Positions 24,867-44,737 of a stretch of DNA of 64,000 bases are shown here, in pieces. Source of the stretch: an uncultured Acidobacteriota bacterium (GTDB lineage Bacteria; Acidobacteriota; UBA6911); contig CAWJKZ010000015.1 of NCBI GenBank assembly GCA_963843575.1, positions 96,001 to 160,000 of the forward strand, in the 5' to 3' direction. A program made the translations under genes and the position numbers. The notes under the pieces were generated by a model. The model saw only the letters and a program-made list of their open reading frames with translations. It was not told where the DNA came from and did no database searches. How positions within the stretch are numbered: the stretch's first letter is position 1; every line of letters starts with the position of its first letter.

Positions 24867-25286
24867 TCAGCTGATGCTCTGCAGCATGTGGGAAAACCTG
24901 CCGGCGTGCGATTTTTCCGCCTTGGCCAGCGTTTCGAACCAGTCCGCGATCTCGGCGAAGCCCTCCGCCCGGGCCGTTTTCGCCATCCCGGGGTACATGT
25001 CGGTGTATTCGTGGGTCTCGCCCTCGATGGCCGCCTTCAGGTTGTCCTCGGTGCCGCCCATAGGCAGGCCGGTCGCGGGGTCGCCCACCTTGCGCAGGTA
25101 GTCCAGGTGGCCGTGGGCGTGGCCCGTTTCGCCTTCGGCGGTCTCGCGAAAATTGCCGGCGACCTCGGGGTAGCCCTCGACGTCGGCGATCTTGGCGAAA
25201 TAGAGGTAGCGGCGGTTCGCCTGCGACTCGCCGGCGAACGCGGCCTTGAGGTTCTCGTGGGTCTTGGTGTTTTTCAGTTCAGCCAT
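24867..25286 (-). CDS. rbr: Rubrerythrin (short type, no rubredoxin domain)
   Basis: [34 protein letters not shown]. Confidence 0.95.
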
Positions 25287-25341
25287 GATGTTTCTCTCCG
25301 TGGTTGTGGGGAGACCTGCTCCCCGGGTTGTATCCTCGGGC

Positions 25342-25803
25342 TCAGCGACTGCGCCCGCTTCTTCGCAAGCCGCGCCGGCACGACTCGCATATCCCGAGAA
25401 TGCGGATGTCGAGTTCCTCGGCCTGAAATCCTCCGGGCAAGGTCCGGGGCAGCCCGACCCGCGACAGCGCCGCGTCCTCCAGGTCGCTCATCGTCCCGCA
25501 TTTCCTGCAGACGGCGTGCTGGTGGGGGGAGACGTTGGCGTCGAAGCGGCTTACGCTGTCGGTGGTGCTGACGCGGCGCACCAGCCCCTCGCGCTCCAGC
25601 GCGTCGAGAATGCGGTAGACCGTCGCCAGCGAGAGCGACGACATGCCGTCGCGGAGACGGTCGTGCACCGACTCGGCCGTGGGATGGCTCGTGTCGCGCG
25701 CGAGGGCCCGGTAGACCGCCAGGCGCTGTGGCGTCACCCGCATCCCCTGGGCGCGACAGCGCTCGATGAAGTGCTCGTGCTCGGACATCGCTGAATCCTT
25801 CAT
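25342..25803 (-). CDS. Fur/PerR family regulator
   Basis: TPQRLAV, HPTAE, SLATVYRIL, HQHAVCRKC, GICESC; true start may be 25788. Confidence 0.93.
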   Translation of the reverse strand: MKDSAMSEHEHFIERCRAQGMRVTPQRLAVYRALARDTSHPTAESVHDRLRDGMSSLSLATVYRILDALEREGLVRRVSTTDSVSRFDANVSPHQHAVCRKCGTMSDLEDAALSRVGLPRTLPGGFQAEELDIRILGICESCRRGLRRSGRSR

Positions 25804-25944: not shown

Positions 25945-25992
25945 CTTAGGGTTCGCGCCAAAATGTGAACTCATTCTTGTGCGAACTCTAAG
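25945..25992. repeat. 48-bp mini-element (family D)
   Basis: CTTAGGGTTCGCGC...GTGCGAACTCTAAG; inverted copy at 40764-40811. Confidence 0.75.
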
Positions 25993-26010
25993 TTTGCTTT
26001 GATCCGTGTG

Positions 26011-26190
26011 CAAAGCTCGACGGGGCGCTCTGGATGTGGTTCTCCGGGGTGGGCTGGCGGCAAACGCTCTCGTGCCAGGCCGGACCCGCGCTCCGAGCTC
26101 CAGTGCGCTTGCCGCAAGCCCACCCCGGAGAACCAACCGGCGCTTTGCGCCGGCCGCCGTGCGGCATCCAGGGCGCCCCGTCGAGCTTTG
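26011..26190. repeat. Long nested inverted repeat
   Basis: CAAAGCTCGACGGGGCGC/GCGCCCCGTCGAGCTTTG outer arms; GGTTCTCCGGGGTGGGCT/AGCCCACCCCGGAGAACC inner arms. Confidence 0.85.
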
Positions 26191-26260
26191 CCGGCGTTCG
26201 TCCGCGTTCGAGGGATTTTGAGTCGCCTGCGCACTGTTTGAATCGCAGAAGCCAAAAGCA

Positions 26261-27191
26261 CTAGAGGCGGGCGAGGGTGACCTGGGGGAGGAGGTGCTCG
26301 ACGTCGGTGAGGACGATGGTGCCGGAGGTCTCGGTCAGGGCGTTGGCGGCTCCGCAGGCCACCGCGAGGCGGGCGGCTTCCGGGAACGGTGTGCCGCGCA
26401 CGATGCCGGCGGCGAATCCGGCCGCGGCCGCGTCTCCGGAGCCGATCGGGTTGACGGCCTCGATGCGTGGCGCCGCCGCGCGCCAGCAGCGGGAGCCGTC
26501 GGATACGGCGATGCCGGCGGCGCCCAGGGTCACGCAGCCCCACCGCGCGCCGGCCTCGACCAGCAGGCGCAGGGCCGACCGCAGCGCCTCGTCGGTGTCG
26601 GCCGGCGCGTGGGTCAGTTCCTGCAGCTCCAGGCGGTTGGGCTTGACGACCCAGGGGCCAGCCGGGAGGGCCAGGCTCAGCGGCTCCCGGGACGCGTCGA
26701 GCACGACGGGGACGGCGGCGCGCTGCGCGAGCTCCACGCAGTCGCGGTAAAACGCCGGGCGAGCCGCCGGGGGCGAGGGAGCCCGAGAGGACGAGGGCCC
26801 GCGCGCCGGGGAGCAGCCTCGAGAGTTTTGCGGCGAGCGCTTCCCAGGCCTCTGCTGCGACGGGCCGCGGCTCCTCGACCAGTTCGGTGGCCGTGCCGCT
26901 GCCTCGGTCGAGCAGGGTCGTGCAGGTGCGGGTCGTCGCGGTGGTGGTGACGAAATCGTGCGCGATCCCCGCCCGGTCGAGTTCCGCCCTCAAAAAGTCC
27001 GAAACCGGGCCGCCGACGAAGCCGAGGGCGAGGGCGTCCTCGCCGAGCGAGTGCAGGACGCGGGCCACGTTGATCGACTTGCCCGAGGCGGTCTCGCGCA
27101 ACTCGACGACGCGGTTGACGGCGTCGACAGTCAGCCGAGGGAAGACCATCGTCCTTTGCAGGGCCGGCGTCGTGCCGAGGCAAATGATCAT
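26261..27191 (-). CDS. 1-phosphofructokinase/tagatose-6P kinase family (PfkB), +1 frameshift near 26765
   Basis: SGKSINVARVL, LSGSL, then in the other frame KPNRLEL and NPIGSGD. Confidence 0.88.
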
Positions 27192-27224
27192 TCCGGGCTA
27201 TTCCCCGATTCGGGTGTCGACATA

Positions 27225-27989
27225 TTACTGCGCCGCGGGCTTGGCGAACTTCGACTCATCGATCTCGACGTTGTGCTTGACCTCGTCGAGCTTGATCGTG
27301 ATTTCCATACCGGGCAGGACCTGCCGCAGCCCGAAGGGAAGCTTCACGCCGTCGACCTCCCGGTAGTCCAGGAAGAACATCTGCAGCTCGACGCTCCCCT
27401 GCGGGCTCTCGCGCTGCACGTCCTGGCGGAGGAGCAGGCCGTTATCGACGTCGAAATACCACTTTTCCACCGTGCCCGAGGCGGGCTCGGCCTCGATGAG
27501 CCACGCGTCCCGCTCGCCGACCTTCTGCCTGCCCTTCACGGTTCGAGCCGGGTAGAGCTCTTTCAGGTGCAGGGGCCGGTAGAAATCCAAGTCGAGCTTC
27601 TTGGCCTCCAGTTCGGCGCCGGCGAGGTCGCGCACGCCGGCCTGGGGCATTTGATCCCAACCGTTCGTGCCGTCGAACCCTTGCCGGATGACCCCGAATT
27701 TCGGCACGTCCAAGACCATGACCGCTTTCCCCGGGGCCTTGACCAGCATGAGGATGGTGCCGCTTGAGCCGAGGGCGGGGACCTCGAAAGTCCCCTTCGA
27801 CTCGCGGCTGGTCAGTTTCTCCAGCGCGGTCCTGCCCCCTATGCTTTCGACGTACTTGTCGAGTATCTGTTCGGATGCCGGGAGCGCCGGGGTAGCTTCC
27901 TCGGCCTTGATTTCTGGTTTCGGCTGGGGTTCCTGGGCCGCCAGCGGGACGGCTCCAAGGAGGAGCATGAGCAACACCTGGTCTTTCAT
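27225..27989 (-). CDS. Secreted LolA-like/DUF620-like protein
   Basis: Signal peptide; ILDKYVESIGG, GFDGTNGW, DYREVDGVKLPF. Confidence 0.75.
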   Translation of the reverse strand: MKDQVLLMLLLGAVPLAAQEPQPKPEIKAEEATPALPASEQILDKYVESIGGRTALEKLTSRESKGTFEVPALGSSGTILMLVKAPGKAVMVLDVPKFGVIRQGFDGTNGWDQMPQAGVRDLAGAELEAKKLDLDFYRPLHLKELYPARTVKGRQKVGERDAWLIEAEPASGTVEKWYFDVDNGLLLRQDVQRESPQGSVELQMFFLDYREVDGVKLPFGLRQVLPGMEITIKLDEVKHNVEIDESKFAKPAAQ

Positions 27990-28141
27990 GCGAAATTCCT
28001 TTCTCTCCCGGGTGGGGCCAAGGCGTTCCATCCCTGTCGGAACGCGACCATCATAGCGTAACGGCCTTGCTGCGGGCGTGGTAATATTCCACTCCCGCAG
28101 CAGATCCGGAAGCGACATCGACGAGTGGGGAAGGGGGCGAA

Positions 28142-28945
28142 TTGAGCAAGGCAGTCAAGCTCTGGGTTCTGGCGTTTGTGGTGACGGCGGCTTCGGCGGT
28201 GTATCAGAGGATCACCGGCCCAACCCACCCGGTCTCCGGGTACGTGACGCTTTCCGGGAGGCCGATCGCGTACAAGCTGGCCAGGAGCCACGGCGGCAAC
28301 ACCAACCAGCCCGTGTCGGTCGAGACCCGGGACCCGCAGATCAAGGGGGACCTGCTGTGGCGCAGGTATCGTGCCGGGGGAGAGTGGACGCGCGTCCCCA
28401 TGGAATTCCGCGACGGCTTCCTTTCGGGCGAACTGCCGTGGCAGCCACCGGCGGGGAAGCTGGAATACCGCGTGGAACTCACCGCCGCGGGGGAGCGGGC
28501 CGCGCTGCCCGAGGGGGGCCCCATCGTGACGCGTTTCAAGGGGGACGTGCCCGTTTCGGTCCTGGTCCTGCACATCATCACGATGTTCGGCGGGATGCTG
28601 CTGTCCACGCGGGCCGGCCTGGAGTTCCTGCAGCCGACCATCAACCTGCGCCGGCTCGCGCTGTGGACCATCGTGTTCCTGGCCATCGGCGGAGCCGTGC
28701 TCGGCCCGATCGTCCAGAAGTACGCCTTCGGAGCCTATTGGACCGGGTGGCCGTTCGGCACGGACTTGACCGACAACAAGACGGCGGTAGCGCTTGCCGG
28801 GTGGGTGGGGGCCTATTTTGCCCTGAACCGCTCACGGCGGCCGCGCCTCTGGGCCGCGCTCGCGGCAGTCCTGCTGCTGGCCGTGTTCCTGATCCCTCAC
28901 AGCCTGTTCGGGTCGGAGTTCGATTACGGACAGAAGGGGCCCTAA
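28142..28945 (+). CDS. Conserved hypothetical membrane protein
   Basis: YQRITGPT, QPPAGKLEY, QKYAFGAYWTGWPFGTDLTDNKT, IPHSLFGSE; about 5 TM helices. Confidence 0.8.
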   Translation: MSKAVKLWVLAFVVTAASAVYQRITGPTHPVSGYVTLSGRPIAYKLARSHGGNTNQPVSVETRDPQIKGDLLWRRYRAGGEWTRVPMEFRDGFLSGELPWQPPAGKLEYRVELTAAGERAALPEGGPIVTRFKGDVPVSVLVLHIITMFGGMLLSTRAGLEFLQPTINLRRLALWTIVFLAIGGAVLGPIVQKYAFGAYWTGWPFGTDLTDNKTAVALAGWVGAYFALNRSRRPRLWAALAAVLLLAVFLIPHSLFGSEFDYGQKGP

Positions 28946-29295
28946 GCACCCCAATTCGCAAGTACGCTCACGTATTCTTTGGATGGAGCTGGTCACCGAT
29001 TGACCACAGCAGAACGCGGATCTTCGCGGATTTTACGGATTCACGCGGATCGGCCGCGCCCGGCATTCCTCCCCGAGGGCCGGCGCTTCGCGCCGAGGCA
29101 TCAAAGCCCGGCTCCCGCAGGAAAGCGCGCGGTTGGAAGGATGCCGCTTCGATTCAAGGTCCACGTTTTCCTGCGGGAGCCGGGCTTTGATGCATGCCAA
29201 AGGGCAGCCCTCGGGGAGGAATGCCGGGCGCGGCCTGCCGCCGGGTCGATCCGTGGCGATCCGCGCGCATCCGCGTCCTGATAAATACATTGTTT
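28942..29295. mobile_element. MITE family C copy with nested palindromic insert
   Basis: Left end at the TAA stop of the upstream CDS; high similarity to 40563-40767; right end degenerate. Confidence 0.75.
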
Positions 29296-29319
29296 CCGTT
29301 CGGCTTGTCTGCGCTGCCG

Positions 29320-30633
29320 TCACATCATCCCGCGACGCGCGACCCCGTCCATGACTTCGCAGAAGCGGTCCAGCTCGGGAAGGGTCGTGTAGACGTTCGG
29401 GGTGATCCGGATCCCTCTGAACTCGTCGTGCACGATGGGAGTTGTGTATATCTTGTGTTTGTCCATCAGGTAGCCGACCAGCTTGACCGGGTCGGTTCCC
29501 TCGATCTCGACGTTGGCGATCCCGCAGGACTGCCGGTCGTCGAACGAGGTGTTGAAGCGCACGTTCGGCGCATCCTTCAAACGGTTCATCCAGTACCGGG
29601 CCAGATAACGGAGGCGCGCCTCCTTGCGTTGCGGTCCGATCCCGTCGTGGAAGAGTATGGCTTCCCCGATGGCCAGCCGCGGGGCGGCGGAATGGGTGCC
29701 CACCTCTTCGAACTTGCGGATGTCGGCGGCGTTTTTCCGCTCCGCCGCCATGAGCGGCCAGATTTTCGGGATGCGCTCGCGCTTTACGTACAGGAGCCCG
29801 GTGCCTTTGGGTGCATAAAGCCACTTGTGCAGGCTCGTGCCGAAGTAATCGCAACCCAGGTCGGCCTGTTTGAAATCGAAGTGGGCGAACGAGTGCGCGC
29901 CGTCGACGATGACCTCGATGCCCCGCGCGCGCGCCAGGTCGCAGATCGCTTTGACCGGCGTGATCTGTCCCGTGATATTCACGACGTGCGAGATCAGGAT
30001 GACGCGGGTCCGCGGCGTTATCCCGCGCGCGAACGCGTCGGTGATCTCGTCGAGGTCCTTGGGCGGCACCGGGATTTTGACCATCTTCAAGGCGATCCCC
30101 TCGCGGGCCTCGCGCTGCCTCAGGGTCGTGAGCATCCGGGGGTAGTCCTGGGTCGTCGTGAGGATCTCGTCGCCGGACTTGAGGTCCATACCCATGAGCA
30201 GGATCTCCAGCGACTCGGATGCGTTCCGGGTTATGGCGATCTCCTCCGGGTCGCAGCCGAACAGCCGGGCGAGGCCGCTTCGGACCGTCTCCGACTGGGG
30301 CTCGAGGATCTGCCACATGGTATAGGCGGTGACGTCCTCCTGTTCCCAGATGTAGCGGATGAGCGATTCGGTCACGATGCGGGGCGATGGGGAGACCCCC
30401 CCGTTGTTGAGGTTGGTGATGCCGCGCGTGACCGTGAAGGCGCGCTGAATGTCGAACCAGAAATCTTCGTCCAGCGCAGCCTGATCCGGGGCGAGATGCT
30501 CTACGCGGCGCGCCGCCGCGCGAATCTCGCCGAGCAATGAGGCGACCGTGGCGGAGGAGAGGGCTGCCAGCCCGATCCCCGTGCCCGCCATCGATAGGAA
30601 CTGCCTTCGACCGGATGCACCTGCTGCCGTCAT
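29320..30633 (-). CDS. Class V aminotransferase/PLP enzyme with Tat signal
   Basis: GRRQFLS Tat motif; NNGGVSP, DGAHS, SLHKW (PLP Lys). Confidence 0.9.
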   Translation of the reverse strand: MTAAGASGRRQFLSMAGTGIGLAALSSATVASLLGEIRAAARRVEHLAPDQAALDEDFWFDIQRAFTVTRGITNLNNGGVSPSPRIVTESLIRYIWEQEDVTAYTMWQILEPQSETVRSGLARLFGCDPEEIAITRNASESLEILLMGMDLKSGDEILTTTQDYPRMLTTLRQREAREGIALKMVKIPVPPKDLDEITDAFARGITPRTRVILISHVVNITGQITPVKAICDLARARGIEVIVDGAHSFAHFDFKQADLGCDYFGTSLHKWLYAPKGTGLLYVKRERIPKIWPLMAAERKNAADIRKFEEVGTHSAAPRLAIGEAILFHDGIGPQRKEARLRYLARYWMNRLKDAPNVRFNTSFDDRQSCGIANVEIEGTDPVKLVGYLMDKHKIYTTPIVHDEFRGIRITPNVYTTLPELDRFCEVMDGVARRGMM

Positions 30634-31188
30634 AGCGACCTCCGGGATTGGTTTGAGAATGCGTCATTGTAACGCGGGCTGGGGTTTTTTCGGATGCAGA
30701 TTGACGTGGATCGAGGAACGGCACCTGGTGACGGGCCGCAGCCGATCCGTCGAGTGTTGGAAGGAGGCCGGGGGTAAACTCCCGGCCCCCTGGTGGGCTA
30801 GTTCACCATTTACTCACGAGCGAAAGACCGGGGAGATGCGGACGATCCTGGAAGGAGCAAACCGCATACCATCCGGGCGCGCCCCGTCGGATCGACTCAA
30901 CTCACTCTAATGGTGTGAATTGCCTGGATCCGACCCGACAAGGCGATTCAGCAGGTGAATGTGGGTATTCGTAAAGTATTCCGACGCGCGAAGGGCCCGA
31001 GGCAGCAGCCGGCGGCTGTAATCTGTTTTGCACTAATACTTTGCAGGCCCGTAATCCCGCGCGACCAACCGCGCCGACACTGACGGAAGGTTTTACAGCA
31101 CCGGCGGCACGGGTTGCCCGCGATCGGGGCTACAAAATGATTGCATCGGATCGCGGAACCCTTTATCTTCAGAGAGCTACGAACCGTT

Positions 31189-32271
31189 ATGGAATTGGTG
31201 TGCCGGCATCGTCTGGGTTGGTCCTTGCTCTTTCTCGCGCTTCTTTGCGTGGTGCAGGGACTGGCGGCGAAGACCCGCAAGACGTCTCTCAAGCCATACG
31301 AGTTTGCACTTGCCCGCATGGGCACCATGTTTCGAATCGTGGCGTACGATTCGGAACAGTCCAGGGCAGCGAGTGCGGCGACGGCTGCGTTCGAGCGCAT
31401 CGAGGAGCTCGAGGCTGTCCTGAGCGATTATCGCGAGGACAGCGAGGTTACCAGCCTTTGTCGTGACGGGAACAATGCGCCCCGCGGGGTGAGTCCGGAA
31501 CTGTTCTCGGTGCTGGAGCAATCGCTCCGGATTTCGCGGCTGAGCGGGGGGGCTTTCGACGTCACGGTCGGCCCCGTCGTGCGGCTCTGGCGGGAGGCGC
31601 GCAGGAGCGGCCGCGTCCCGGACACCGACGCGCTGAAGAAGGCCCGCGCCGCCGTAGGATATGGCAACGTTGAGTTGAACCCGGATGCGCGGACCGTTTG
31701 GCTCAAGCTTCCGGGGATGCAGCTGGACTTCGGCGGGATCGGCAAGGGGTACGCCGCCGACCAGGCGCTGGCGCTGCTGCGCGAGCGGGGTATCGCGTGC
31801 GCGCTGGTGGATGCCGGAGGTGATTTGACGCTGGGTGCCTCGCCTCCGGGGACGCCGGGGTGGAGGATCGTGCTCCGCAACCCGGACACGGCGCGGGGTG
31901 CCGAGCCTGGCGTCATGTTCCTGCACGACGTGGGCGTCGCGACCTCCGGGGATGCCTTCCAGTATCTGGAGGTCGACGGGCGGCGCTACTCGCACATCGT
32001 CAATCCCGGAGACGGGATGGGGTTGCGGGGGTCGGCCGGTGTCACCGTGATTGCCCCGGATGGAACCACGGCCGACGCGCTGGCTACCGCGCTGAGCGTG
32101 ATGCCGGTCGCGGATGGTATGAGGTTAGTAGAATCGATGGAGGGGGTCTCCGCCGCTGTCGTGAGGCGAAGCGACGGCGTGTTGAGGCGCACCTCCTCGA
32201 AGCGGTTCCCGAAGGCGGCGGGCGTTCGACCCGCACTGCGCGAGAGCGCCACCGCCTCCGGGCGGCGCTGA
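31189..32271 (+). CDS. apbE: FAD:protein FMN transferase
   Basis: MGT, GAFDVTVGP, LDFGGIGKGYA, ATSG, YSHIVNP, ADALATA. Confidence 0.95.
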   Translation: MELVCRHRLGWSLLFLALLCVVQGLAAKTRKTSLKPYEFALARMGTMFRIVAYDSEQSRAASAATAAFERIEELEAVLSDYREDSEVTSLCRDGNNAPRGVSPELFSVLEQSLRISRLSGGAFDVTVGPVVRLWREARRSGRVPDTDALKKARAAVGYGNVELNPDARTVWLKLPGMQLDFGGIGKGYAADQALALLRERGIACALVDAGGDLTLGASPPGTPGWRIVLRNPDTARGAEPGVMFLHDVGVATSGDAFQYLEVDGRRYSHIVNPGDGMGLRGSAGVTVIAPDGTTADALATALSVMPVADGMRLVESMEGVSAAVVRRSDGVLRRTSSKRFPKAAGVRPALRESATASGRR

Positions 32272-32341
32272 TTACATATACGCTCACCGGCTCAGGGCGA
32301 ACGCGCGCTGCGCCCTCCGGCTTGAACACAGGTTGTCCCCG

Positions 32342-33898
32342 ATGAGTCTTAATCCCGAAAAGAAGAAAGCACGACGCAAGTCCCGTTTCCTGTTTCTCGC
32401 CGGCATGGTCATCGGCGTGGCCGCCATCCTTGGGGCAAAAGCAGGCGTAGACTACAGCTCGACAGACAAATTCTGCGACCAGTTATGCCATTCGCACCCC
32501 CATGCGACCCAGACGTGGATCAAGTCGACCCACTTCACGACGAAGAGCGGCGTCGTGACACACTGCGTGGACTGCCACCTGCCGGGCGGCGGCATTGAGT
32601 ACTACACCGAGAAGGCGCGTCTGGGCCTGCACGACGCCTACGGCAAGCTGTTCAAAGACCCCGCCAAACTCGACTGGATTTCGAAGCGCAGCATCGAGGC
32701 GGCCTCCGACTTCACCTACGACTCGGCGTGCGTCCGCTGCCATCAGAATCTGTTCAGCGCCAAGCTCACAAAGAAAGGCGTGGACGGCCACCTGCACTAT
32801 CAGCGTGCGAAAGAGTCGCTGCGCTGCATCAGCTGTCATCTGACCGCAGGGCACTATCGGGACAAGAAGGCCGACGAAGGAGTGGAGGCCGGCGAGGACC
32901 TGTTCGACCTGACTGCCTACCCGGAAAAGATCGAAGGGTTCAAGGGTTACACGGAGGTGCTTCCCGGAACGCCGGTGAAGTTCGAGATGGTGGCCGTGCC
33001 CGGCGGGTCTTTCCAGATGGGGAGCCCCGACACGGAGCCGTATCGCCGGGTGGACGAAGGCCCCCAGCGGACGGTCAAGCTGAGCCCGTTCTGGATCGGG
33101 CGCACGGAAGTGCGCTGGCGCGAGTGGGAGGTTTTCTACGCTCAGCGCGGCGTCGCCGGCAAGAATGATTCGGACTACGATCCCAACAAGGCGGTGTCCG
33201 GCCCCACCCCCCCATACGGTTCGCCCGACCAGGGTTGGGGGCGCGGTTCGCGGCCGGTCATCACCATGACCCACCATGCGGCAACGGTCTACTGCGAGTG
33301 GCTTACCTCGGTGACGGGCAAGAAATTCCGCCTGCCGACCGAGGCGGAGTGGGAATACGCCTGCCGGGCAGGCACCACGACGCCGTATTTCTTCCCCGGC
33401 GACCCGTCCAGGTTTACCGCCCACACCTGGTGGAACCGGCTGGTCGGCGCCAAGTTGACGCCGATCGGCGACTATGCCCGCTTTGCGGGCACAAGCCGCA
33501 TGCGGACGTTCCCCCCGAGCGCGAGCAAACCCAACCCGTGGGGCATCGTCAACATGCTCGGGAACGTGCGCGAGTTCTGCCTGGATTGGTACGACGCCAA
33601 GGCGTACGGCAAGTACCCGGCTTCCGGGGTCGAGAATCCGCGCGGTCCCGAAGAAGGAAAGGAACACGTCGTCCGCGGCGGATCGTACAAGTCCGACGCC
33701 GCGGACCTCCGCTCGGCCGCACGCGATTTCACGCGTCACGACCGGTGGATGGTCACCGACCCTCAGTCCCCCAAGAGCATCTGGTGGTATTCGGACTGCA
33801 CGGATGTCGGGTTCCGCGTTGTGCGCGAGTATGAACCCGGAGAAATACCGGGAGGGCCGAAGCCCGCCGCGGTCCAGACGGTTGCGCAGGGCAACTGA
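32342..33898 (+). CDS. NapC/NirT tetraheme cytochrome fused to an FGE/SUMF1-like domain
   Basis: N-terminal TM; CDQLCH, CVDCH, CVRCH, CISCH; then VPGGSFQMGS, RLPTEAEWEYACRAG, NMLGNVREF, RGGS, VGFRVV. Confidence 0.9.
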   Translation: MSLNPEKKKARRKSRFLFLAGMVIGVAAILGAKAGVDYSSTDKFCDQLCHSHPHATQTWIKSTHFTTKSGVVTHCVDCHLPGGGIEYYTEKARLGLHDAYGKLFKDPAKLDWISKRSIEAASDFTYDSACVRCHQNLFSAKLTKKGVDGHLHYQRAKESLRCISCHLTAGHYRDKKADEGVEAGEDLFDLTAYPEKIEGFKGYTEVLPGTPVKFEMVAVPGGSFQMGSPDTEPYRRVDEGPQRTVKLSPFWIGRTEVRWREWEVFYAQRGVAGKNDSDYDPNKAVSGPTPPYGSPDQGWGRGSRPVITMTHHAATVYCEWLTSVTGKKFRLPTEAEWEYACRAGTTTPYFFPGDPSRFTAHTWWNRLVGAKLTPIGDYARFAGTSRMRTFPPSASKPNPWGIVNMLGNVREFCLDWYDAKAYGKYPASGVENPRGPEEGKEHVVRGGSYKSDAADLRSAARDFTRHDRWMVTDPQSPKSIWWYSDCTDVGFRVVREYEPGEIPGGPKPAAVQTVAQGN

Positions 33899-33993
33899 CC
33901 CCGTCACCGCGGCGGGGAGGGTGAGATTTTTGTCCCGGGGTTTGCCGAACTGCGGTACAGTGCATTGATCTGTCATTATCCGAGGAGGCAGGA

Positions 33994-35346
33994 ATGAAAG
34001 AGGACTTCAGTCGTCGAGACTTTTTTGGGGCGGCTGCCGTAGCCGGCGCCGGCCTCGTCATGGCTTCATGTGCTCAAAAGAAGACTTTCCCAAAGATGAC
34101 CTTTACGGACAAGGCACCGGACGGCCCCGTCCTGAAGGCCGGATTGGTCGGCTGCGGCGGCAGGGGCACGGGTGCGGCCGAGAATTTTCTCAAGGCCGGC
34201 CCCAATCTCCAGGTGGTCGCTCTGGCCGACATGTTCCAGGACCGGATCGACAAGTGCAAGACACGCCTCGAGAGCAAGTATCAGCAGAAGATCGCCCCCG
34301 AGCGGACATACCTCGGGTTCGACGCCTACAAGAAGCTGATCGATTCCGAAGTCGACATCGTCCTGCTGGCTGCTCCGCCGCACTTCCGCCCCATCCACTT
34401 CGATTATGCGGTGGAAGCGAAGAAACACGTCTTCGCCGAGAAACCGGTCGGAGTCGACCCGGTGGGCATCCGCGCGCTGATGGCTTCGGGCGAAAAGGCG
34501 AAGGCCTACAACCTCAACGTTGTGACCGGCACGCAGCGCCGGCACCAGCGCCAGTACCTCGAGAACTACAGCCACGTCAGCAACGGCGCCATCGGCAAGA
34601 TCCTCGCTGCCCGCTGCTACTGGAACCAGGGCCAGCTCTGGTACAAGCAGCGCCAGAAGGAGTGGAGCGACATGGAAGCCATGCTGCGCGACTGGGTCAA
34701 CTGGACATGGCTCTCCGGCGACCACATCGTCGAGCAGCACGTGCACAACATCGACGTCATCGCCTGGTTCATGGGCGCTCACCCGGTCAAGGCCGTGTCG
34801 ATGGGCGGACGCATGCGGCGCGTGACCGGCGACCAGTTCGACTTCTTCTCGACCGACTTCACGTTCGAGAACGGCGTGCACCTGCTCAGCCAGTGCCGCC
34901 AGATCGACGGCTGCGACAACGAAATCTCCGAGTACCTGGTCGGCACCGAAGGCTCCACCAACTGCAGGGGCACGATCTGGGACAAGGAAGGCAAGATAGT
35001 GTGGCAGTTCCAGGAAGCCGCGAAGGAACAGGAGACCCCTGGACAGGTCACCATGCTGGATCCCGAAAAGTCCGACGTCTCGCCCTATGATCAGGAGCAC
35101 GTCGACCTGGTCACCGCAATCCGGACGAACAAGCCGATCAACGAGGCCGAGAGCACGGCCAAGTCGACCCTGACCGCAATAATGGGCCGCATTTCGGCCT
35201 ACACCGGCAAGGAAACGACCTGGGAGCAGATGATGTCCCTGGATCTGAAGCTCGGGCCCGCCGAATATGCCATGGGCCCGATCCCCACTATCCAGGCGAC
35301 CATTCCGGTCCCCGGCACCAGCAAGGTCGTGCTTCCAGCGGAATAG
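33994..35346 (+). CDS. Tat-exported Gfo/Idh/MocA oxidoreductase (possible lipoprotein)
   Basis: SRRDFF, MASC lipobox-like, GCGGRG, EKP, WLSGDHIVEQHVH. Confidence 0.93.
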   Translation: MKEDFSRRDFFGAAAVAGAGLVMASCAQKKTFPKMTFTDKAPDGPVLKAGLVGCGGRGTGAAENFLKAGPNLQVVALADMFQDRIDKCKTRLESKYQQKIAPERTYLGFDAYKKLIDSEVDIVLLAAPPHFRPIHFDYAVEAKKHVFAEKPVGVDPVGIRALMASGEKAKAYNLNVVTGTQRRHQRQYLENYSHVSNGAIGKILAARCYWNQGQLWYKQRQKEWSDMEAMLRDWVNWTWLSGDHIVEQHVHNIDVIAWFMGAHPVKAVSMGGRMRRVTGDQFDFFSTDFTFENGVHLLSQCRQIDGCDNEISEYLVGTEGSTNCRGTIWDKEGKIVWQFQEAAKEQETPGQVTMLDPEKSDVSPYDQEHVDLVTAIRTNKPINEAESTAKSTLTAIMGRISAYTGKETTWEQMMSLDLKLGPAEYAMGPIPTIQATIPVPGTSKVVLPAE

Positions 35347-35356
35347 CTGAAAAGCA

Positions 35357-35579
35357 GGTTTTGGGTGTTGGGTTTTGGCAGAGATGCCTGAACCCAACAC
35401 CCGCCCTCGAAGTCTCAAATACAACTGCAACAACCTGCCACGGAAACCACGGAATACACCAAGTCTCAAATGTCAGTATTCCCTGTTCTTCCGTGTCTTC
35501 CGTGGCGAGTTTTTACCTGTGTGGGCGAATCCCTTCCGGGAAACACCAACACCCAGAACCCAGTCCCCACCCCCCACCT
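35357..35579. repeat. Family E CCACGGAA doublet flanked by inverted heptamer-like arrays
   Basis: GCCACGGAAACCACGGAA ... TTCCGTGTCTTCCGTGGC; flanks GGGTGTTGGGTTTTGG and CCAACACCCAGAACCCAG. Confidence 0.7.
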
Positions 35580-36449
35580 TTAATGCACCCAGCGTCCGAT
35601 CCCGTGCGTCAGGCGCGAGAAGGATTTCCTGGCCGAGGCCGGGATGTCCGGGATCATTCCCGACAGGGTACTCAGGTCGGGCAAGGATGGGACCATCCTG
35701 CGCCATCGTGGGGCCGGGGTGCGGTAACGAAGCGCCATCCTGGCGCCGTAGTATGCCAGCGCGCCGGCCGCGGTTCCGGCAAGCGCACGGTTTTCGGGAG
35801 ACCATCGACGCAGCCGTCCGAAGTCGTACGAAGGCATGCGGCGCATCACCCTGTCCCAACGCGAAACTGGTTTGTGCCGCTCCAGCGCGTAACGCACGCC
35901 GTAGTACGTTCCGATCCCGCCGGCCGTGAGTCCGAGAACCCTCCACGCCCGCGGCATTCCTCCCGGTACGCGCCGGCGGTGGCGCCGGTGTCCCTTCAGT
36001 GCCGGGGCGTTGTCGGCGGAATCGTGCACGGAGATTCTGTTTTCCGCACTTGTCACGCCAGGGGTACGGGCCACCTCGGTCATAAGGTCGTCGACTTCGT
36101 CCCTCAGGATATCGCCGGTCAGGATGACACTGCCGCCCTGGGCATTGACCGAGATGGCGGACGGGTACGACACCACGTGTCCAATCCGTGACCGGACTCT
36201 CGCTTCCAGAACGCTGTCGTCGCCAACCCCTTCCTGTCCTGCCACGCCCACACTGGCCAGGGTGCCCTGTGCCCGGTTGCCGATGTCTCTGGCGGTTGCG
36301 TCCAGTGCCCTGTGCCCCTTCCTCCACCAACTCGAAATCTTGTCGCGCACAAGCGCACGTCTGCGTCGCCCCGCTGCCGGGTCCAGGAAATACATGACGA
36401 CGCCTGCGCCAAGGCCTACTCCGCCCAACAGTGCAATTTTCCGGTTCAT
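35580..36449 (-). CDS. BON-domain membrane protein
   Basis: [19 protein letters not shown]; DDSVLEARVRSRIG...GVTSAENRI. Confidence 0.82.
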   Translation of the reverse strand: MNRKIALLGGVGLGAGVVMYFLDPAAGRRRRALVRDKISSWWRKGHRALDATARDIGNRAQGTLASVGVAGQEGVGDDSVLEARVRSRIGHVVSYPSAISVNAQGGSVILTGDILRDEVDDLMTEVARTPGVTSAENRISVHDSADNAPALKGHRRHRRRVPGGMPRAWRVLGLTAGGIGTYYGVRYALERHKPVSRWDRVMRRMPSYDFGRLRRWSPENRALAGTAAGALAYYGARMALRYRTPAPRWRRMVPSLPDLSTLSGMIPDIPASARKSFSRLTHGIGRWVH

Positions 36450-36624
36450 GGCTGCTCCTCCTTGAGTGACACAGAAAACCCCGCCCCCGAGAGAGCAATT
36501 TCTGGCCCACGCGCGCCGAAAGCGGAACGGCTGCAGGTGCAATCACCTCCGGGGGCGCCGGTCGCGAAGCGGCTCCTGAGTTAAGGGGAGTTCCTCCCTG
36601 GCGGGACCCAAACAAATGGTAACC

Positions 36625-36711
36625 TGGAGTTTGGCGCCTCGGCGCCACGCCGAATTGCGAGATGCGACCCTGCGACCTCGTCCTTTGGTGGCGCCGAGCC
36701 GCCGCACTTCA
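36625..36711. repeat. Family B REP-like doublet (degenerate)
   Basis: TGGAGTTTGGCGCCTCGGCGCC ... GAGCCGCCGCACTTCA. Confidence 0.7.
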
Positions 36712-36894
36712 TAACTGCGTCACTACTTCCGCCTCACTTTATAAGGATCTGAAAGGAAGCGAAAGCATTCGTTTGACTCGGGGGGGACGTTCATCGTTTA
36801 ATAGGTGCGAGCTGGCACGAACTTTCGTTATGATAGCTCCCACTTGAGCCGCTGCGTCCGGAGGATTCCGCGCAGGGCAGGAAAGGTTAAGGAC

Positions 36895-38094
36895 ATGAAA
36901 CGACGCTTTGATCTTACCAGGCGCGAGTTCATCCTGTCGTCAGCAGCGGCAGGGACCGCGGCCACCATTACCATCGTCAAACCCGAATCGGTTCGGGGCA
37001 CGCAGGCCAACAGTGCCATCACCCTCGGCTGGGTCGGCCTGGGCGGTCGCGGCACCGCCGATGCCAAGGGGCTCGCGGCTGCCGGCGCCCGGATCACGGC
37101 GCTGGGCGACGTGTTCCAGGAGCGGATTGACGCGGCGCGCAAGATTTTCACCGTCGACGACAGCATGTGTTTCACCGGTTTCGATGCCTACAAGAGAGTC
37201 TGTGACCAGAAAGTCGACGCCGTGATGCTGGTGACGCCGCCGGGATTCAGGCCCGACGAGTTCAGGACGGCGGTGGAGGCAGGCAAGCACATTTTCGCCG
37301 AGAAGCCGCTGGCGGTGGACGCCTGGGGCTGCCGGGACGTGCTGGCGAACGGCGAGAAGGCGAAGACGAAGAAGTTGAGCGTGGTGGTTGGGCTGCAGCG
37401 GCGCTACAGCACAGCCTACCAGGAGGCGCAGAAACTCATCGCCGGCGGAAGGCTGGGCACCATAGTCACGGCGCGCGGATTCTATCTGACCGGCGACGTG
37501 TGGAAAGGGAGAACCTGGCCGCGCGCCGACTTCCCTTCCGAGCAGCACTGGATGGCTCGGAACTGGTATTATTTCAGGGCGCTGTCGGGCGACCTGATCA
37601 CGGAACAGAACATACACAACCTGGATGCGCTCAACTGGGTCCTGGGATCGCACCCGGACCGTTGCGTCGGCTACGGCGGGCGCAAGTGGCGCAAATACAT
37701 CGGAGACATCTTCGATCACTTCAACGTCACCTATGAGTACCCCGGGGGCGTACACCTGACCTTCATGTCGGGCCAGTTCGCCACGCTGCACGACAGTTCG
37801 GAGCAAGTCCTGGGCACCGATGGCACCTTCATGACGACCGGCGGGATGCGCATCGAGGGTAAGGACCCGTGGAAGTACGAAGGCGATAGCGACTCCAACA
37901 AGAACGAGTGGGAAGCGTTCGTCAACAGCGTCAAGAACGGCCAGCCCCGTGCCGACACGGCTCACGCCGTCGACGGCACGTTCACCACGATCCTGGGCCG
38001 GGAAGCCGCCTACACCCGTAAAGAGGTTGAGTGGACGAAGCTCTGGGAAAAGAACGAGAAACTGGAGCGCAAGGCCTATCCGGTGGCGACCTAG
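36895..38094 (+). CDS. Tat-exported Gfo/Idh/MocA oxidoreductase
   Basis: TRREFI, GLGGRG, EKP, LSGDLITEQNIH. Confidence 0.92.
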   Translation: MKRRFDLTRREFILSSAAAGTAATITIVKPESVRGTQANSAITLGWVGLGGRGTADAKGLAAAGARITALGDVFQERIDAARKIFTVDDSMCFTGFDAYKRVCDQKVDAVMLVTPPGFRPDEFRTAVEAGKHIFAEKPLAVDAWGCRDVLANGEKAKTKKLSVVVGLQRRYSTAYQEAQKLIAGGRLGTIVTARGFYLTGDVWKGRTWPRADFPSEQHWMARNWYYFRALSGDLITEQNIHNLDALNWVLGSHPDRCVGYGGRKWRKYIGDIFDHFNVTYEYPGGVHLTFMSGQFATLHDSSEQVLGTDGTFMTTGGMRIEGKDPWKYEGDSDSNKNEWEAFVNSVKNGQPRADTAHAVDGTFTTILGREAAYTRKEVEWTKLWEKNEKLERKAYPVAT

Positions 38095-38160
38095 ATTCTG
38101 AGGACTTCGGGCCTCCACCGCGGGGGCCCGGGGTCAAACCGATAACAGGAGATACGACAC

Positions 38161-39093
38161 ATGATGAAAAACGTGAATCGCCGCGAGTTCCTGAAAGCCA
38201 CTTCGTCTCTCGCCGTGAGCGGCGCCGTGCTAGGCGCCGGCTTGGCCGTGCGCCCGGAAGCGGCGCCGGCGGCGCCGGCCCCCGGGGCGGGCCCCTGGAA
38301 GGGATTCTGCATCGGCGTCCTCCCGAAGGAGATGAGCGTACTGGACAAGTTCAAGCTGGCCAAGAAGGTCGGCATCGAGGGCATCGAGCCCAACACCCTG
38401 ACAACCCCCGAGGAAGTAGCCGAATACAAGGAAGCAGCCAAAAACACCGGGGTCAAGATTCTCTCGATCATGAACTCGGACCATTGGAAGTTTCCGCTTT
38501 CGGATAACGATCCCGAAGTGGTCAAGAAGAGCATCGACGGCGTGAAGACGTCGCTGAAGAATGCGGCGGAACTGGGAGCCCCCGTCATCCTCCTGGTGCC
38601 AGCGGTGGTCGCCGCGGATGTCCGTTATGCGGACGCCTACACGAGATCGCAGAAGATCATCACGGAGCAGCTGCTCCCGATGGCGAAGGACCTGAAGGTC
38701 ATCATCGGCATCGAAAACGTCGGCAACCGCTTCCTTCTCAGCCCTCTTGAATTCGCCCGCTACGTCGACGAATTTAAAAGCCCCTGGGTCAAGGCCTATT
38801 TCGACGTCGGCAACATCGTTTCGAACGGCTGGCCCCAGGACTGGATTCGCACCCTGGGCCCCAGGCTCTGCAGCATCCACATCAAGAGATTCGAACCGGG
38901 GAAGGATTACCCGAAATACGATCCGGCCGATAGGCGCGGGCAGGGCGTCGGCTGGCCTGAAGTTCGGAGCGCTCTGGCAGAAGTCAAATACACCGGCTGG
39001 ATCACCGCGGAAGTCCGCGGGGGCGACGAGGCCTACCTGACCGAGCTCAGCGCCCGGATGGACAAGATTCTCGCCGGAGACAGCCCCGCCTAG
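38161..39093 (+). CDS. Tat-exported sugar phosphate isomerase/epimerase TIM-barrel protein
   Basis: NRREFL; IENV, YFDVGN, HIK, TAE metal ligands. Confidence 0.9.
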   Translation: MMKNVNRREFLKATSSLAVSGAVLGAGLAVRPEAAPAAPAPGAGPWKGFCIGVLPKEMSVLDKFKLAKKVGIEGIEPNTLTTPEEVAEYKEAAKNTGVKILSIMNSDHWKFPLSDNDPEVVKKSIDGVKTSLKNAAELGAPVILLVPAVVAADVRYADAYTRSQKIITEQLLPMAKDLKVIIGIENVGNRFLLSPLEFARYVDEFKSPWVKAYFDVGNIVSNGWPQDWIRTLGPRLCSIHIKRFEPGKDYPKYDPADRRGQGVGWPEVRSALAEVKYTGWITAEVRGGDEAYLTELSARMDKILAGDSPA

Positions 39094-39324
39094 GTCACGC
39101 CTGCCCGGGGTTGCTCTCGTTTGTGGGGTTGTCGGGCTTGCCTCTCCCGCTGAGGCGGGCGAAAGCACTGCCCGGCAACCCCTAATCAAGATTTGGCCCC
39201 GGCTCCCCTCTTCCCTTGAAGTGCCCGGGAATGTATTCTCTGTCCCAAGTAGGGTCATAGTATTTCCCGGCAAGCGCAGAGCTTGCTTCCCGTTGAAGGC
39301 CAAGACCGACGCGGAGGTGCACTC

Positions 39325-40560
39325 TTGTCCATCCAGCGGTTTCTTCACGAGACGCTTACCTTAATACTGGCCGGTGGACAGGGGGAGCGACTCTACCCGC
39401 TCACGAAAGACCGCGCGAAGCCGGCGGTCCCGTTCGCGGGGGAATACCGCATCATCGATTTCACGCTCTCCAACTGCGTCAACTCCGGCCTGAAGCGCAT
39501 CTACGTGCTGACCCAGTACATGAGCCACTCCCTCGACCGGCACCTGAAGCTCGGGTGGAACATCCTCGCGACCGCGCTCGACGAATTCCTGTACACCATC
39601 CCCCCGCAATTCAGGACGGGCAACCGCTGGTACCTTGGGACTGCCGACGCGGTCTTCCAGAACGTCTACATCCTGCAAAACGAGCGCCCGTCCCACGTCG
39701 TGATCCTCTCCGGAGATCACATCTACAAGATGGACTACAGCGAGATGATCGAGGCGCACGCGCGCACCGGGGCGCTGTGCACCGTGGCGGTCGTGGAACA
39801 CGACAGGGCGACGGCGAACAGGATGGGGGTGGTCGAGGTCGACGCGGACAACCGCTTCGTGAGCTTCTCGGAGAAGCCGGCCGACCCGAAGCCCATGCCC
39901 GGCCAGCCGGCCGTCGCCTTGGTGAACATGGGGGTGTACGTTTTCGAGACCGCGACCTTGGTCCAGGCCGTGTCGGAGGATTCGCGGCGCGACTCCGCCC
40001 ACGATTTCGGCCAGAACATCCTCCCCTCGCTCATCCGTACGGGCAAGGTTTTCGCGCACCCGTTCCGGGACGAAAACCGCGCACAGGTGAAGTACTGGCG
40101 GGACATCGGCACGTTGGACGCCTACTACGAAGCCAGCATGGACCTGGTCAGGGTCAATCCGTCCTTTAACCTCTACGACCGCAGTTTCCCGATCCGGACC
40201 TTCATGGAGCCGAGGCCTCCGGTGAAGATGGTGTTCGGCGGCCAGGAGGAGGGGCGCGCCGGTATGGCGCTCGATTCGCTGCTCTGCAGCGGCTGCATCA
40301 TCAGCGGAGGACGTGTCGAGCGATCGATCCTCTCGCCCAACGTGCGGATAAACTCCTACTCGCTGGTGCAGGACTCGATCCTGTTCGATTACGTCCAGAT
40401 CGGCCGTCACGCCCGGATCCGCCGCGCCATCATCGACAAGGACGTGCACGTGCCCCCCGGGTTCCAGATCGGCTACGACCCGAAGGAGGACGCGCGCCGC
40501 TTTACCGTGACGGATTCAGGCCTCGTCGTGGTCCCGCGCGGCACCGTTATCGAGGAATAG
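39325..40560 (+). CDS. glgC: Glucose-1-phosphate adenylyltransferase
   Basis: LAGGQGERLYPLT.DRAKPAVPF, LSGDHIYKMDY, YWRDIGT; TTG start after GGAGG. Confidence 0.97.
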   Translation: MSIQRFLHETLTLILAGGQGERLYPLTKDRAKPAVPFAGEYRIIDFTLSNCVNSGLKRIYVLTQYMSHSLDRHLKLGWNILATALDEFLYTIPPQFRTGNRWYLGTADAVFQNVYILQNERPSHVVILSGDHIYKMDYSEMIEAHARTGALCTVAVVEHDRATANRMGVVEVDADNRFVSFSEKPADPKPMPGQPAVALVNMGVYVFETATLVQAVSEDSRRDSAHDFGQNILPSLIRTGKVFAHPFRDENRAQVKYWRDIGTLDAYYEASMDLVRVNPSFNLYDRSFPIRTFMEPRPPVKMVFGGQEEGRAGMALDSLLCSGCIISGGRVERSILSPNVRINSYSLVQDSILFDYVQIGRHARIRRAIIDKDVHVPPGFQIGYDPKEDARRFTVTDSGLVVVPRGTVIEE

Positions 40561-40562
40561 AG

Positions 40563-40767
40563 TTAGTACCACATTTCGCAAATACGCTAACGTATTCTCG
40601 GGATGGAGCTGGTCACCGATTGACAACGTGCAGAACGCGGATCTTCCCGGATTTAACGGATTCACGCGGATCGGCCGGGCGCGGCCTGCCACCAGGTAGA
40701 AATCCGCGTGCATCCGCGCAAATCCGCGTCCTGGAAACGTTAGCGTATTTCTGAACACGAGTACTTA
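40563..40767. mobile_element. MITE family C, complete copy
   Basis: TTA-GTAC...GTAC-TTA ends; perfect 14-bp subterminal inverted repeat AAATACGCTAACGT (40580-40593)/ACGTTAGCGTATTT (40737-40750). Confidence 0.8.
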
Positions 40768-40840
40768 GGGTTCGCGCAAGAATGAGTTCACATTTTGGCG
40801 CGAGCCCCAAGCTACAACGTAAATCCCCGAGAATCCGCGG
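40764..40840. repeat. Family D mini-element plus shared flank
   Basis: Reverse-complement match to about 25912-25992. Confidence 0.75.
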
Positions 40841-40907
40841 CACTTCCACAATAGCTGGCCTGCTCACTGGTTTCAGGGTAAAGTTGTGGGTTCCCCCGGG
40901 GGTGCGC

Positions 40908-44728: not shown

Positions 44729-44737
44729 AGACACAAC

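Follow-up and report, generated by a model that had tools for sequence, protein, structure and literature searches.

In a 64,000-nt stretch of the genome of an uncultured Acidobacteriota bacterium (GTDB lineage UBA6911; assembly GCA_963843575.1, contig CAWJKZ010000015.1, positions 96,001 to 160,000; hereafter the window, whose own numbering is used throughout), three genes encode an ApbE-type flavin mononucleotide (FMN) transferase, a membrane-anchored tetraheme protein of the NapC/NirT type fused to a domain with the fold of the formylglycine-generating enzyme (FGE), and a Gfo/Idh/MocA dehydrogenase carrying a twin-arginine translocation (Tat) signal, termed GfoA in the following. We propose that the products act together as a periplasmic electron transfer module, in which electrons would run from a substrate to nicotinamide adenine dinucleotide (NAD) bound in GfoA, then to an FMN tethered to the FGE-like domain, to the hemes and finally to quinone, and we put the probability of this full chain at roughly 55%. 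The wider formulation, that a dead FGE/PvdO fold represents a new class of ApbE substrate, with its tethered FMN serving as the second substrate of a Tat-exported NAD nicotinoprotein and feeding the fused hemes towards the respiratory chain, is offered more tentatively, as somewhat less than an even bet. What sequence and computation show is the gene content, the sequence motifs, a linkage kept across genomes and an interface that was predicted against controls. An earlier note on this DNA, made from its letters alone, had interpreted the locus as a flow of electrons from a sugar over bound NAD and a flavin to hemes and quinone. The in-silico tests support this interpretation, within which we infer the covalent flavin, the hydride transfer, the direction of flow, the quinone acceptor and the substrate class.

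The three genes at 31189-35346 all lie on the plus strand, are intact, and are separated by 61 nt (apbE to fusion gene) and 95 nt (fusion gene to GfoA gene) in a region with a G+C content of 62-69%. The apbE gene (31189..32271) starts with the ATG at 31189, and its open reading frame (ORF) extends upstream to a TTG at 31141. Its product, a flavin adenine dinucleotide:protein FMN transferase of predicted periplasmic location, reaches 259.4 bits with PF02424 (ApbE; cut-off 25.6) in a match that spans positions 1-264 of the 266 in the profile, and its N-terminus MELVCRHRLGWSLLFLALLCVVQGLAAK is signal-peptide-like. Both the near full-length ApbE domain and the extracytosolic location thus identify it as an ApbE protein, while it scores below the NCBIfam equivalog for the E. 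coli-type enzyme (148 bits, cut-off 498). The fusion gene (32333..33898) encodes 521 amino acids if translated from the TTG at 32333, or 518 from the ATG at 32342. According to Pfam, direct reading and a structural model, the protein consists of a transmembrane anchor, a tetraheme NapC/NirT domain (Cytochrom_NNT, PF03264; residues 13-174, 90.3 bits, cut-off 24.1), a hydrophilic linker and the FGE-fold domain (FGE-sulfatase, PF03781; residues 218-466, 141.9 bits, cut-off 23.3). Four heme c attachment motifs were read from the DNA at 32474..32839, namely C48xxxC52H (CDQLCH, 32474-32491), which is of the CX3CH type, C78xxC81H (CVDCH, 32564-32578), C133xxC136H (CVRCH, 32729-32743) and C165xxC168H (CISCH, 32825-32839). 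An N-terminal membrane helix and four heme c motifs in a compact domain place this part among the NapC-type proteins, but not among the orthologues of NapC, NrfH or TorC, as it falls below all NCBIfam equivalog cut-offs (NrfH 65 vs. 134, NapC 46.5 vs. 349, TorC 50.5 vs. 478).

The FGE-fold, PvdO-like domain, identified with PF03781 and Foldseek, extends over residues 218-499 (32984..33829). The string RGGSYKSDAADLRSAAR at 33674-33724 (residues 448-464) contains no cysteine, and neither does the consensus of 80 sequences across this stretch. We take this stretch, which follows the GGS motif, to be the place of the copper-binding catalytic Cys pair in true FGEs. Because the pair is absent, the domain is by its sequence not a formylglycine-generating enzyme, and we have not filed it as such. 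GfoA (33994..35346, 450 residues) scores above the cut-offs of PF01408, PF22725 and PF02894, which together represent the N- and C-terminal GFO_IDH_MocA domains, and its N-terminus MKEDFSRRDFF was recognized as a twin-arginine signal (TIGR01409, 17.2 bits, cut-off 16.7). Among 65 relatives the RRxF motif (R7, R8, F10) is kept in at least 90%, residues G53, G55, R57, G58 and E149-K150-P151 are invariant, and D79 is again present in at least 90%. By analogy, D79 at the end of strand beta-2 suggests that GfoA favours NAD over NADP, and the cofactor is presumed to be non-exchangeable. What the earlier note had read at this locus, that is, three co-oriented genes for an FMN transferase, an anchored four-heme protein with one CxxxCH motif fused to an FGE fold, and a Tat-exported Gfo enzyme, together with an FGE domain that lacks its catalytic Cys pair, was recovered in every part by the profile searches and the direct reading.

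The fused architecture is not peculiar to the window. Among the 120 best relatives in the database, 119 contain PF03264 as well as PF03781, and the one that does not is a 430-residue fragment. Named sources of these relatives are Acidobacteriota, KSB1, Latescibacteria and Bacteroidota, and the proteins currently go under the names formylglycine-generating enzyme or 'SUMF1/EgtB/PvdO family nonheme iron enzyme'. Across an alignment of 80 relatives neither the Cys nor the His residues of the heme motifs vary. The first of these motifs takes two forms in an alignment of 14 members, of which 5 have CX3CH and 9 have CX2CH with a gap of one residue; those CX3CH carriers that have names belong to the Terriglobia or Acidobacteriota.

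For the genomic context, 185,579 species genomes were scanned with the two most conserved peptides of the family, which gave 78 loci, and the window proteins were then searched by tblastn. The linkage counts cover 77 of these loci, as L048 gave no ORF. Nine loci (L001-L009) contain the full fusion, and a GfoA-type gene follows directly downstream in eight of them, L003 being at the end of a contig. About thirty more loci match the FGE-like half only, with 32-44% identity, and most of these are flanked by a GfoA-type gene and many by ApbE. The alignment of the FGE-like ORFs splits cleanly: those linked to Gfo or ApbE share the loop D-A-[VI]-[ST]-x-[PA]-[TS] (residues 286-292) and a second loop W..DPQxPKSxWWxxD (472-488), while generic FGE-family proteins carry neither. 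Loci were assigned to this subfamily ('loop-positive') if the FGE-like ORF showed the loop D-A-x-[ST]-x-[PA]-[TS], as called from the columns of a domain-trimmed alignment; L057, positive under a looser rule, was re-classed as negative. Among the 40 loop-positive loci a Gfo gene was found within 1.5 kb in 26, an ApbE gene within 3 kb in 14, and at least one of the two in 30. Not a single Gfo or ApbE gene was found within these distances in the 36 loop-negative loci, to which L057 adds one further negative. Fisher's test gives 4e-10 for Gfo and 5e-5 for ApbE, values which overstate independence as the positives form one clade. When only loop-positive loci with at least 1.5 kb of flanking sequence on both sides are considered, the numbers are 18 of 26 for Gfo and 8 of 26 for ApbE.

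According to the titles of their records, carriers of the subfamily span at least seven phyla, namely Acidobacteriota, Bacteroidota, KSB1, Planctomycetota, Verrucomicrobiota, Gemmatimonadota and Armatimonadota. Gene order varies: Gfo lies upstream in L017 and L027, and the orientation of ApbE is divergent in two loci (L010, L020) and convergent in another (L019). An ApbE gene adjoins the FGE-like gene with no Gfo in the flank in L010 and L021, and likewise in L023 and L042, where the contig ends. As ApbE stays where the flank has no Gfo, the pattern of neighbours points to the FGE-like protein, and not Gfo, as the partner of ApbE. When 186 neighbouring ORFs were annotated with Pfam, nothing else proved to be conserved besides an AP_endonuc_2 TIM barrel with a Tat or Sec signal, and no other recurrent partner was found in the Gfo-less subfamily loci (L013, L014, L024, L029, L032, L033, L040), of which L024 has neither Gfo nor ApbE in its 8-kb flanks. 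The conservation of the neighbourhood across genomes, which the earlier note had named as a check on its interpretation, thus came out in its favour. That the three genes are unrelated neighbours is extremely unlikely. A scan of 30500-39400 for promoters and terminators did give counts equal to the shuffle level and hence no operon evidence, and an Rfam scan of 26000-41000 revealed no riboswitch or RNA family; yet the linkage is kept across the at least seven phyla with varying gene order, and the predicted interface described below was controlled. Because the fusion recurs among the best relatives and the linkage recurs across phyla, the neighbourhood is, on the comparative sequence evidence, more than chance.

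The loop-bearing FGE-like domain is not always combined with NapC/NirT hemes. According to Pfam it is joined to PSCyt1 (Planctomycete cytochrome C) in L014, L016 (two copies) and L018, and in L017 and L027 a single CxxCH lies within an N-terminal extension of the FGE-like protein, similar to the PSCyt1 fusions. These monoheme-cytochrome fusions come from Verrucomicrobiota and Acidobacteriota, and in Bacteroidota the FGE-like domain stands alone behind a signal peptide. That it was joined repeatedly to c-type cytochrome modules of unrelated kinds argues for a function of the domain in electron transfer. Some further arrangements were seen. Two Planctomycetota loci contain tandem copies of the loop-bearing FGE-like gene (L020, 1367-3651; L024, 7770-10414). 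In L015, from a member of the Planctomycetaceae, a large DUF7133-HEAT-cytochrome c protein (4690-7701) is encoded directly upstream of a heme-less FGE-like/Gfo pair and is a possible separate cytochrome partner. In L021, from a member of the Flavobacteriaceae with no Gfo nearby, a YceI-like gene of the polyisoprenoid-binding family (8960-9502) lies between the FGE-like gene and apbE, which could hint at a quinone link in versions that lack hemes.

An AlphaFold2 model of the fusion protein based on 80 sequences reached a mean predicted local distance difference test (pLDDT) value of 85.9 and a predicted template modelling score of 0.85, with the anchor modelled as a helix at residues 8-42. Foldseek returned PvdO (5hha) as top match, with a TM-score of 0.77 on the target, followed by FGE structures (E ~1e-17). 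The loop around T292 (residues 290-298) has a pLDDT below 50 and is the least confident internal segment, and is predicted to be flexible; residues 470-490 are also soft. The fold itself raises the question whether the domain might be a metal-dependent oxidase or maturase that acts on GfoA or its product, with the hemes feeding the activation of O2. The similarity to PvdO, which NCBIfam names a dihydropyoverdine dehydrogenase, and to FGE, as well as the annotation of source proteins as 'SUMF1/EgtB/PvdO family nonheme iron enzyme', would fit such a role. The copper-binding Cys pair of FGE is, however, absent, and the iron site of EgtB sits in another domain that is not present here. The domain reaches only 104.4 bits with the PvdO equivalog (cut-off 500), and the scores of the fusion protein with the PvdO, EgtB, SenA and OvoA equivalogs are all far below the cut-offs. 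As an oxidase or maturase would also leave ApbE unexplained, we consider this function quite improbable.

The interaction between the two proteins was predicted with GfoA residues 27-450, NAD, FMN and the FGE domain (residues 195-505), using alignments of 65 and 53 rows. Three runs gave complex scores (ipSAE) of 0.48, 0.65 and 0.65, with a median of 0.65, compared to 0.00 in each of three controls. This modelling check, also proposed in the earlier note, therefore had a positive outcome. The mark applied to such scores is reached by 116 of 157 solved complexes and by 2 of 215 mismatched pairs, counts which serve only as a rough calibration here because our own alignments were used and two ligands rode along. 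Contact agreement between runs was at least 73% and the partners had a pLDDT of at least 88. We know of no solved Gfo/FGE-like complex, and it is therefore unlikely that the prediction reproduced a known structure. On the FGE side the modelled interface comprises residues 293, 296-297 and 300-301, which flank T292, together with 471-480 and 488 of the inserted loop. On the Gfo side it comprises the Gly-rich NAD loop (56-60, 62-63), Q181 in the GTQRRH strand, residues 212-218 and the loop 359-365. In the model, FGE residues 477-480 and 488 contact Gfo residues 56-63, 91, 181 and 359-365. The GfoA loop (348-365) carries P364-Y365, kept in at least 92% of the Gfo proteins adjacent to FGE-like genes, and is missing from GfoB, a second Gfo protein of the window described below, and from two non-adjacent paralogues. 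The inserted loop of the FGE side, D476-PQSPKSIWWYS-D488 (33758..33796), is specific for the subfamily and does not occur in generic FGE-family ORFs; residues D476, P477, Q478, P480, K481, S482, W484 and W485 are each found in 80 of 80 relatives. Clade-specific insertions are thus present in both partners where the model joins them, over the NAD and active-site cleft. We conclude that the FGE-like protein and GfoA very probably form one functional unit.

Regarding the flavin, which the earlier note had placed on the FGE domain, a concrete candidate site can be given with T292, a position occupied by Thr or Ser in every aligned relative. The residue lies at the end of the loop K286-A-V-S-G-P-T292 (33188..33208; T292 codon 33206-33208), which resembles the motif D-x-x-[S/T]-G-A-[S/T] described for ApbE substrates in the review PMC12052999, with FMN on the last residue. 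According to the same review, G-to-A and A-to-V substitutions in the motif leave about 50% flavinylation and a D-to-A exchange has a minor effect. In the window motif the terminal Thr, the Gly and the Ser agree with the canon, and the positions of Asp and Ala do not. Position 292 is T in 77 and S in 3 of the 80 fusion relatives, and T in 46 and S in 7 rows of the 53-sequence alignment, and never anything else; in the latter alignment, which includes the FGE-only clade, just two further columns are likewise 100% Ser/Thr. In the 80 fusion relatives G290 is invariant, position 291 is P in 65 and A in 15, and the four-residue core reads TGPT (54), TGAT (12), SGPT (8), SGAT (2), SGPS (2), TGPS (1) or VGAT (1). 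A canonical [ST]GAT core is hence present in 14 of 80 and the leading Asp in 65 of 80. For an attachment site one would expect just such a column, restricted to hydroxyl residues but alternating between Thr and Ser, which makes T292 our candidate. Flavinylation of GfoA itself was considered and rejected, as [ST]G[APSG][ST] does not occur in the protein and those Ser/Thr columns that are conserved belong to core motifs.

Alternatively, the FGE-like domain may be free of flavin and serve as a docking, lectin-like or chaperone subunit of GfoA, which might bind the glycan substrate or keep the enzyme at the membrane beside the hemes, with ApbE serving another target or flavin trafficking. The linkage to Gfo (26 of 40) exceeds that to ApbE (14 of 40), the motif is non-canonical in most members and partly ancestral, and the FGE fold is akin to C-type lectin folds. 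Under this assumption, however, the Thr/Ser-only column would stay unexplained, and a direct transfer from NADH to heme would have no converter between two-electron and one-electron steps. For a gene present in one or two copies, the presence of ApbE in 14 of 40 compared to 0 of 36 loci is far above chance, and ApbE persists in L010 and L021, where Gfo is missing. Furthermore, Pfam scans of the larger window ORFs and of the neighbour loci gave no member of FMN_bind, DUF2271 or DUF3570, which are known ApbE substrate families. A flavin-free subunit is therefore a doubtful explanation, and we regard the FGE-like domain as a probable substrate of ApbE.

If flavinylated, the module might work as follows. 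GfoA would fold around NAD in the cytoplasm and leave by the Tat pathway, and since it folds before export its cofactor could not be exchanged; non-dissociable NAD(P) is likewise what Tat export and the precedents discussed below would imply. In the periplasm GfoA would oxidize a substrate at a hydroxyl group, with sugars, glycosides and cyclitols as the most likely candidates, and the resulting NADH would stay bound. ApbE would link FMN through a phosphoester to Thr292 on the flexible loop of the FGE-fold domain, and this domain would dock over the active-site cleft of GfoA by means of the T292 loop and the DPQxPKSxWW loop. The tethered isoalloxazine could thereby act as second substrate of a ping-pong cycle and take the hydride from the bound NADH. 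The FMN would then split the electron pair and pass the electrons one at a time to the NapC/NirT domain with its four c-type hemes, of which the one nearest to the membrane would reduce quinone. In those proteins that contain PSCyt1 in place of NapC, the electrons might exit by a cytochrome c/oxidase route.

Several points weigh against this proposal. The motif of the window deviates from the canon at two places, as it has Lys where Asp is expected and, at position -1, Pro instead of Ala, and Pro at -1 does not figure among the substitutions cited above from PMC12052999. The FGE-only clade mostly has R-P at -2/-1, with a core that is mostly [ST]RP[TS]. The residues D-A-V are ancestral to the fold, and because a solved bona fide FGE carries DAVVPEAPWW at that place the likeness to the motif is partly inherited. 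[ST]G[AP][ST] is moreover common by chance, so that the weight rests on invariance and linkage. A second invariant hydroxyl, S482 (33773-33778 region), in D-P-Q-x-P-K-S, shows the Asp-to-Ser spacing of the ApbE motif; situated within the predicted interface, it could instead be the real flavin attachment site. The covalent flavin is a prediction, and to our knowledge no member of the FGE fold binds flavin. Regarding the linkage, 26 of the 40 subfamily loci have no ApbE within 3 kb and 10 of 40 have neither Gfo nor ApbE, and no ApbE was found in the flanks examined of the fusion loci L002 and L004-L009, seven loci flanked on both sides. Among the 120 best longer relatives, which are multi-domain generic FGE proteins, none is fused to Gfo or ApbE (PF01408, PF02424), although this is weak evidence; a look-up of the FGE domain in the ESM Atlas likewise returned generic FGE-family clusters only. 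The complex score is the model's own confidence, and the interface is a predicted one. No equivalog fixes the substrate of GfoA, as the scores for inositol 2-dehydrogenase (63.7 vs. 355) and glycoside 3-dehydrogenase (BT_2158_fam, 39.7 vs. 750) remain far below the cut-offs. Finally, characterized NapC/NirT proteins usually draw electrons from quinol and do not deliver them.

This last point leads to the possibility of a reverse flow, in which the NapC/NirT part oxidizes quinol and passes electrons over hemes and FMN to the bound NAD, so that GfoA would be a periplasmic reductase of a keto-sugar or another carbonyl and the module a respiratory or detoxifying reductase. The resemblance to the NapC/NirT/NrfH family, whose characterized members are established quinol dehydrogenases feeding periplasmic reductases, is in line with this direction. 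Reduction of NAD (about -320 mV) by menaquinol (about -75 mV) would, however, be uphill according to textbook potentials, and the monoheme PSCyt1-type cytochrome c fusions suit an oxidative exit better. That Gfo-type enzymes can reduce keto-sugars, namely during the second half of the catalytic cycle, is described in PMC8121099 and 10.1101/2024.03.25.586180; on the other hand, carbonyl reduction needs no hemes where a sugar co-substrate exists. We therefore regard the reverse direction as unlikely, and a flow of electrons from the substrate to quinone or cytochrome as more likely than not.

Downstream of GfoA the window contains a second Tat-signal Gfo/Idh/MocA paralogue, GfoB (36895..38094, plus strand; ORF open from 36805), identified with Pfam and NCBIfam, which is probably an accessory enzyme of the same pathway and not the predicted docking partner. 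It is followed by a Tat-signal xylose-isomerase-like TIM barrel of the AP_endonuc_2 family (38161..39093, plus strand; Pfam 125.8 bits, TIGR01409 19.9 bits). Such a TIM barrel adjoins the module in L004, L005, L007, L026, L030, L034 and L037 according to clustering, and was confirmed with Pfam in the four that were scanned; homologues of the window gene are present in L001 and L027. By analogy, the TIM barrel and GfoB resemble accessory enzymes of 3-keto-glycoside pathways, and this substrate class is our best guess. Between the two Gfo units, on the minus strand, a membrane protein with a weak match to BON (17.9 bits, below the cut-off) is encoded at 35580-36542, and a BON-like gene holds the same position in L001. 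A Tat-signal class-V aminotransferase (29320-30633, minus strand) is divergent from apbE and has PvdN as its top NCBIfam match (160.5 bits, cut-off 650). A PvdN-like protein next to a PvdO-like one is reminiscent of the pvdMNO operon; as a part of the module the aminotransferase was dropped, being conserved beside it in the close relative L001 only.

Some other genes of the window appear broken. A pfkB gene within 25971-27191 (minus strand) is split over two frames, one ORF covering profile positions 23-143 and the ORF 26261-26737 covering positions 154-294. In the purL region (40782-44835, plus strand) the GATase domain sits in an overlapping ORF (43879-44835), and a lone Gfo C-terminal fragment is found at 62109-62612 (plus strand). 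ApbE and GfoA of the close relative L001 are likewise broken into several frames by tblastn. The apparent frameshifts of the window (pfkB, purL and the Gfo fragment) may be assembly indels rather than signs of pseudogenes. A group of minus-strand genes at 22882-25803 for DUF3501, a CCG/4Fe-4S (HdrD-like) protein, rubrerythrin and a Fur-family regulator looks like an oxidative-stress or iron unit with no relation to the module.

Bacteria of soils, the sea and the gut possess very many exported Gfo/Idh/MocA dehydrogenases, which start the non-hydrolytic breakdown of glycosides. Tat-exported Gfo-type enzymes hold NAD(P) tightly (Liu et al. 2021, PMC8121099; bioRxiv 10.1101/2024.03.25.586180), and recycling of the cofactor by 3-ketoglucose was shown in the latter work. 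Both publications leave the physiological acceptor open, the only demonstrated way of recycling being the reduction of a second sugar. If our proposal is true, the module could represent the 'specialised protein' postulated in the field, which would re-oxidize periplasmic Gfo-type sugar dehydrogenases, and cells could conserve energy from periplasmic sugar oxidation. A new fold would join the ApbE substrates, and the annotation of at least 119 clusters with the fused architecture, as well as that of FGE-only members, would have to be corrected. A modular wire from NAD to an electrode would also be of biosensor interest. The cultured carriers Pedobacter sp. Hv1, Eudoraea adriatica DSM 19308 and Tautonia sociabilis GM2012 make the module directly testable. 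A full-text literature search, with most subscription journals outside its reach, yielded no published account that links ApbE or flavinylation with an FGE fold, with Gfo/MocA or with PvdO/NapC, which agrees with the statement of the earlier note that no characterized example was known.

Among known systems, NapC, NirT, NrfH and CymA share with the fusion protein one N-terminal transmembrane helix and four c-type hemes within about 175 residues, and the exchange of electrons with the quinone pool is presumed for the fusion protein too. In contrast to these proteins it has an FGE-fold domain attached, its clade has a CX3CH as first motif, and the proposed flow is towards quinone. The flavinylated proteins described for ApbE (NqrC/RnfG FMN_bind, DUF2271, DUF3570, FMN_red, Flavodoxin_4; PMC8238504; 10.1101/2024.03.13.584918) show the same pairing of apbE with a secreted redox protein and an [S/T]GA[S/T]-like motif, and they have the link to membrane cytochromes and the quinone pool in common with the module of the window. 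Text searches of these two surveys gave no mention of FGE, sulfatase, Gfo or NapC. Compared to the described substrates, the FGE/PvdO-like carrier fold would be new, Pro is mostly found at -1, and the proposed donor is a nicotinoprotein. Top structural match of the domain is PvdO, a periplasmic FGE fold that equally lacks the Cys pair and is, by its NCBIfam name, implicated in an oxidation; unlike what we propose for the fusion protein, PvdO is devoid of a heme domain, and no flavin has been reported for it.

Regarding the donor, the glucose-fructose oxidoreductase of Zymomonas and the glycoside 3-dehydrogenase BT2158/AL3 of Bacteroides possess a Tat signal and Rossmann and Gfo C-terminal domains as does GfoA, and their tightly bound cofactor is recycled in place and Tat/Sec TIM-barrel and second Gfo genes lie nearby, as they do here. 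GfoA is, however, not an orthologue of BT_2158, given its score far below the cut-off of that family. These enzymes recycle their cofactor with a second sugar in a redox-neutral ping-pong reaction, whereas the module of the window would use a flavin-heme acceptor and thereby carry out a respiratory oxidation. The lactose 3-dehydrogenase LacABC and glucoside 3-dehydrogenases of the FAD type couple periplasmic sugar oxidation to c-type heme and the respiratory chain, in the way proposed here. In these complexes the catalytic subunit is itself a flavoprotein, while in our proposal catalysis would depend on bound NAD, and the flavin would sit on another protein, the one with the FGE fold. The module would thus extend what is known of ApbE-dependent extracytosolic electron transfer and of flavocytochrome dehydrogenases by a carrier fold and a type of donor that are both new.

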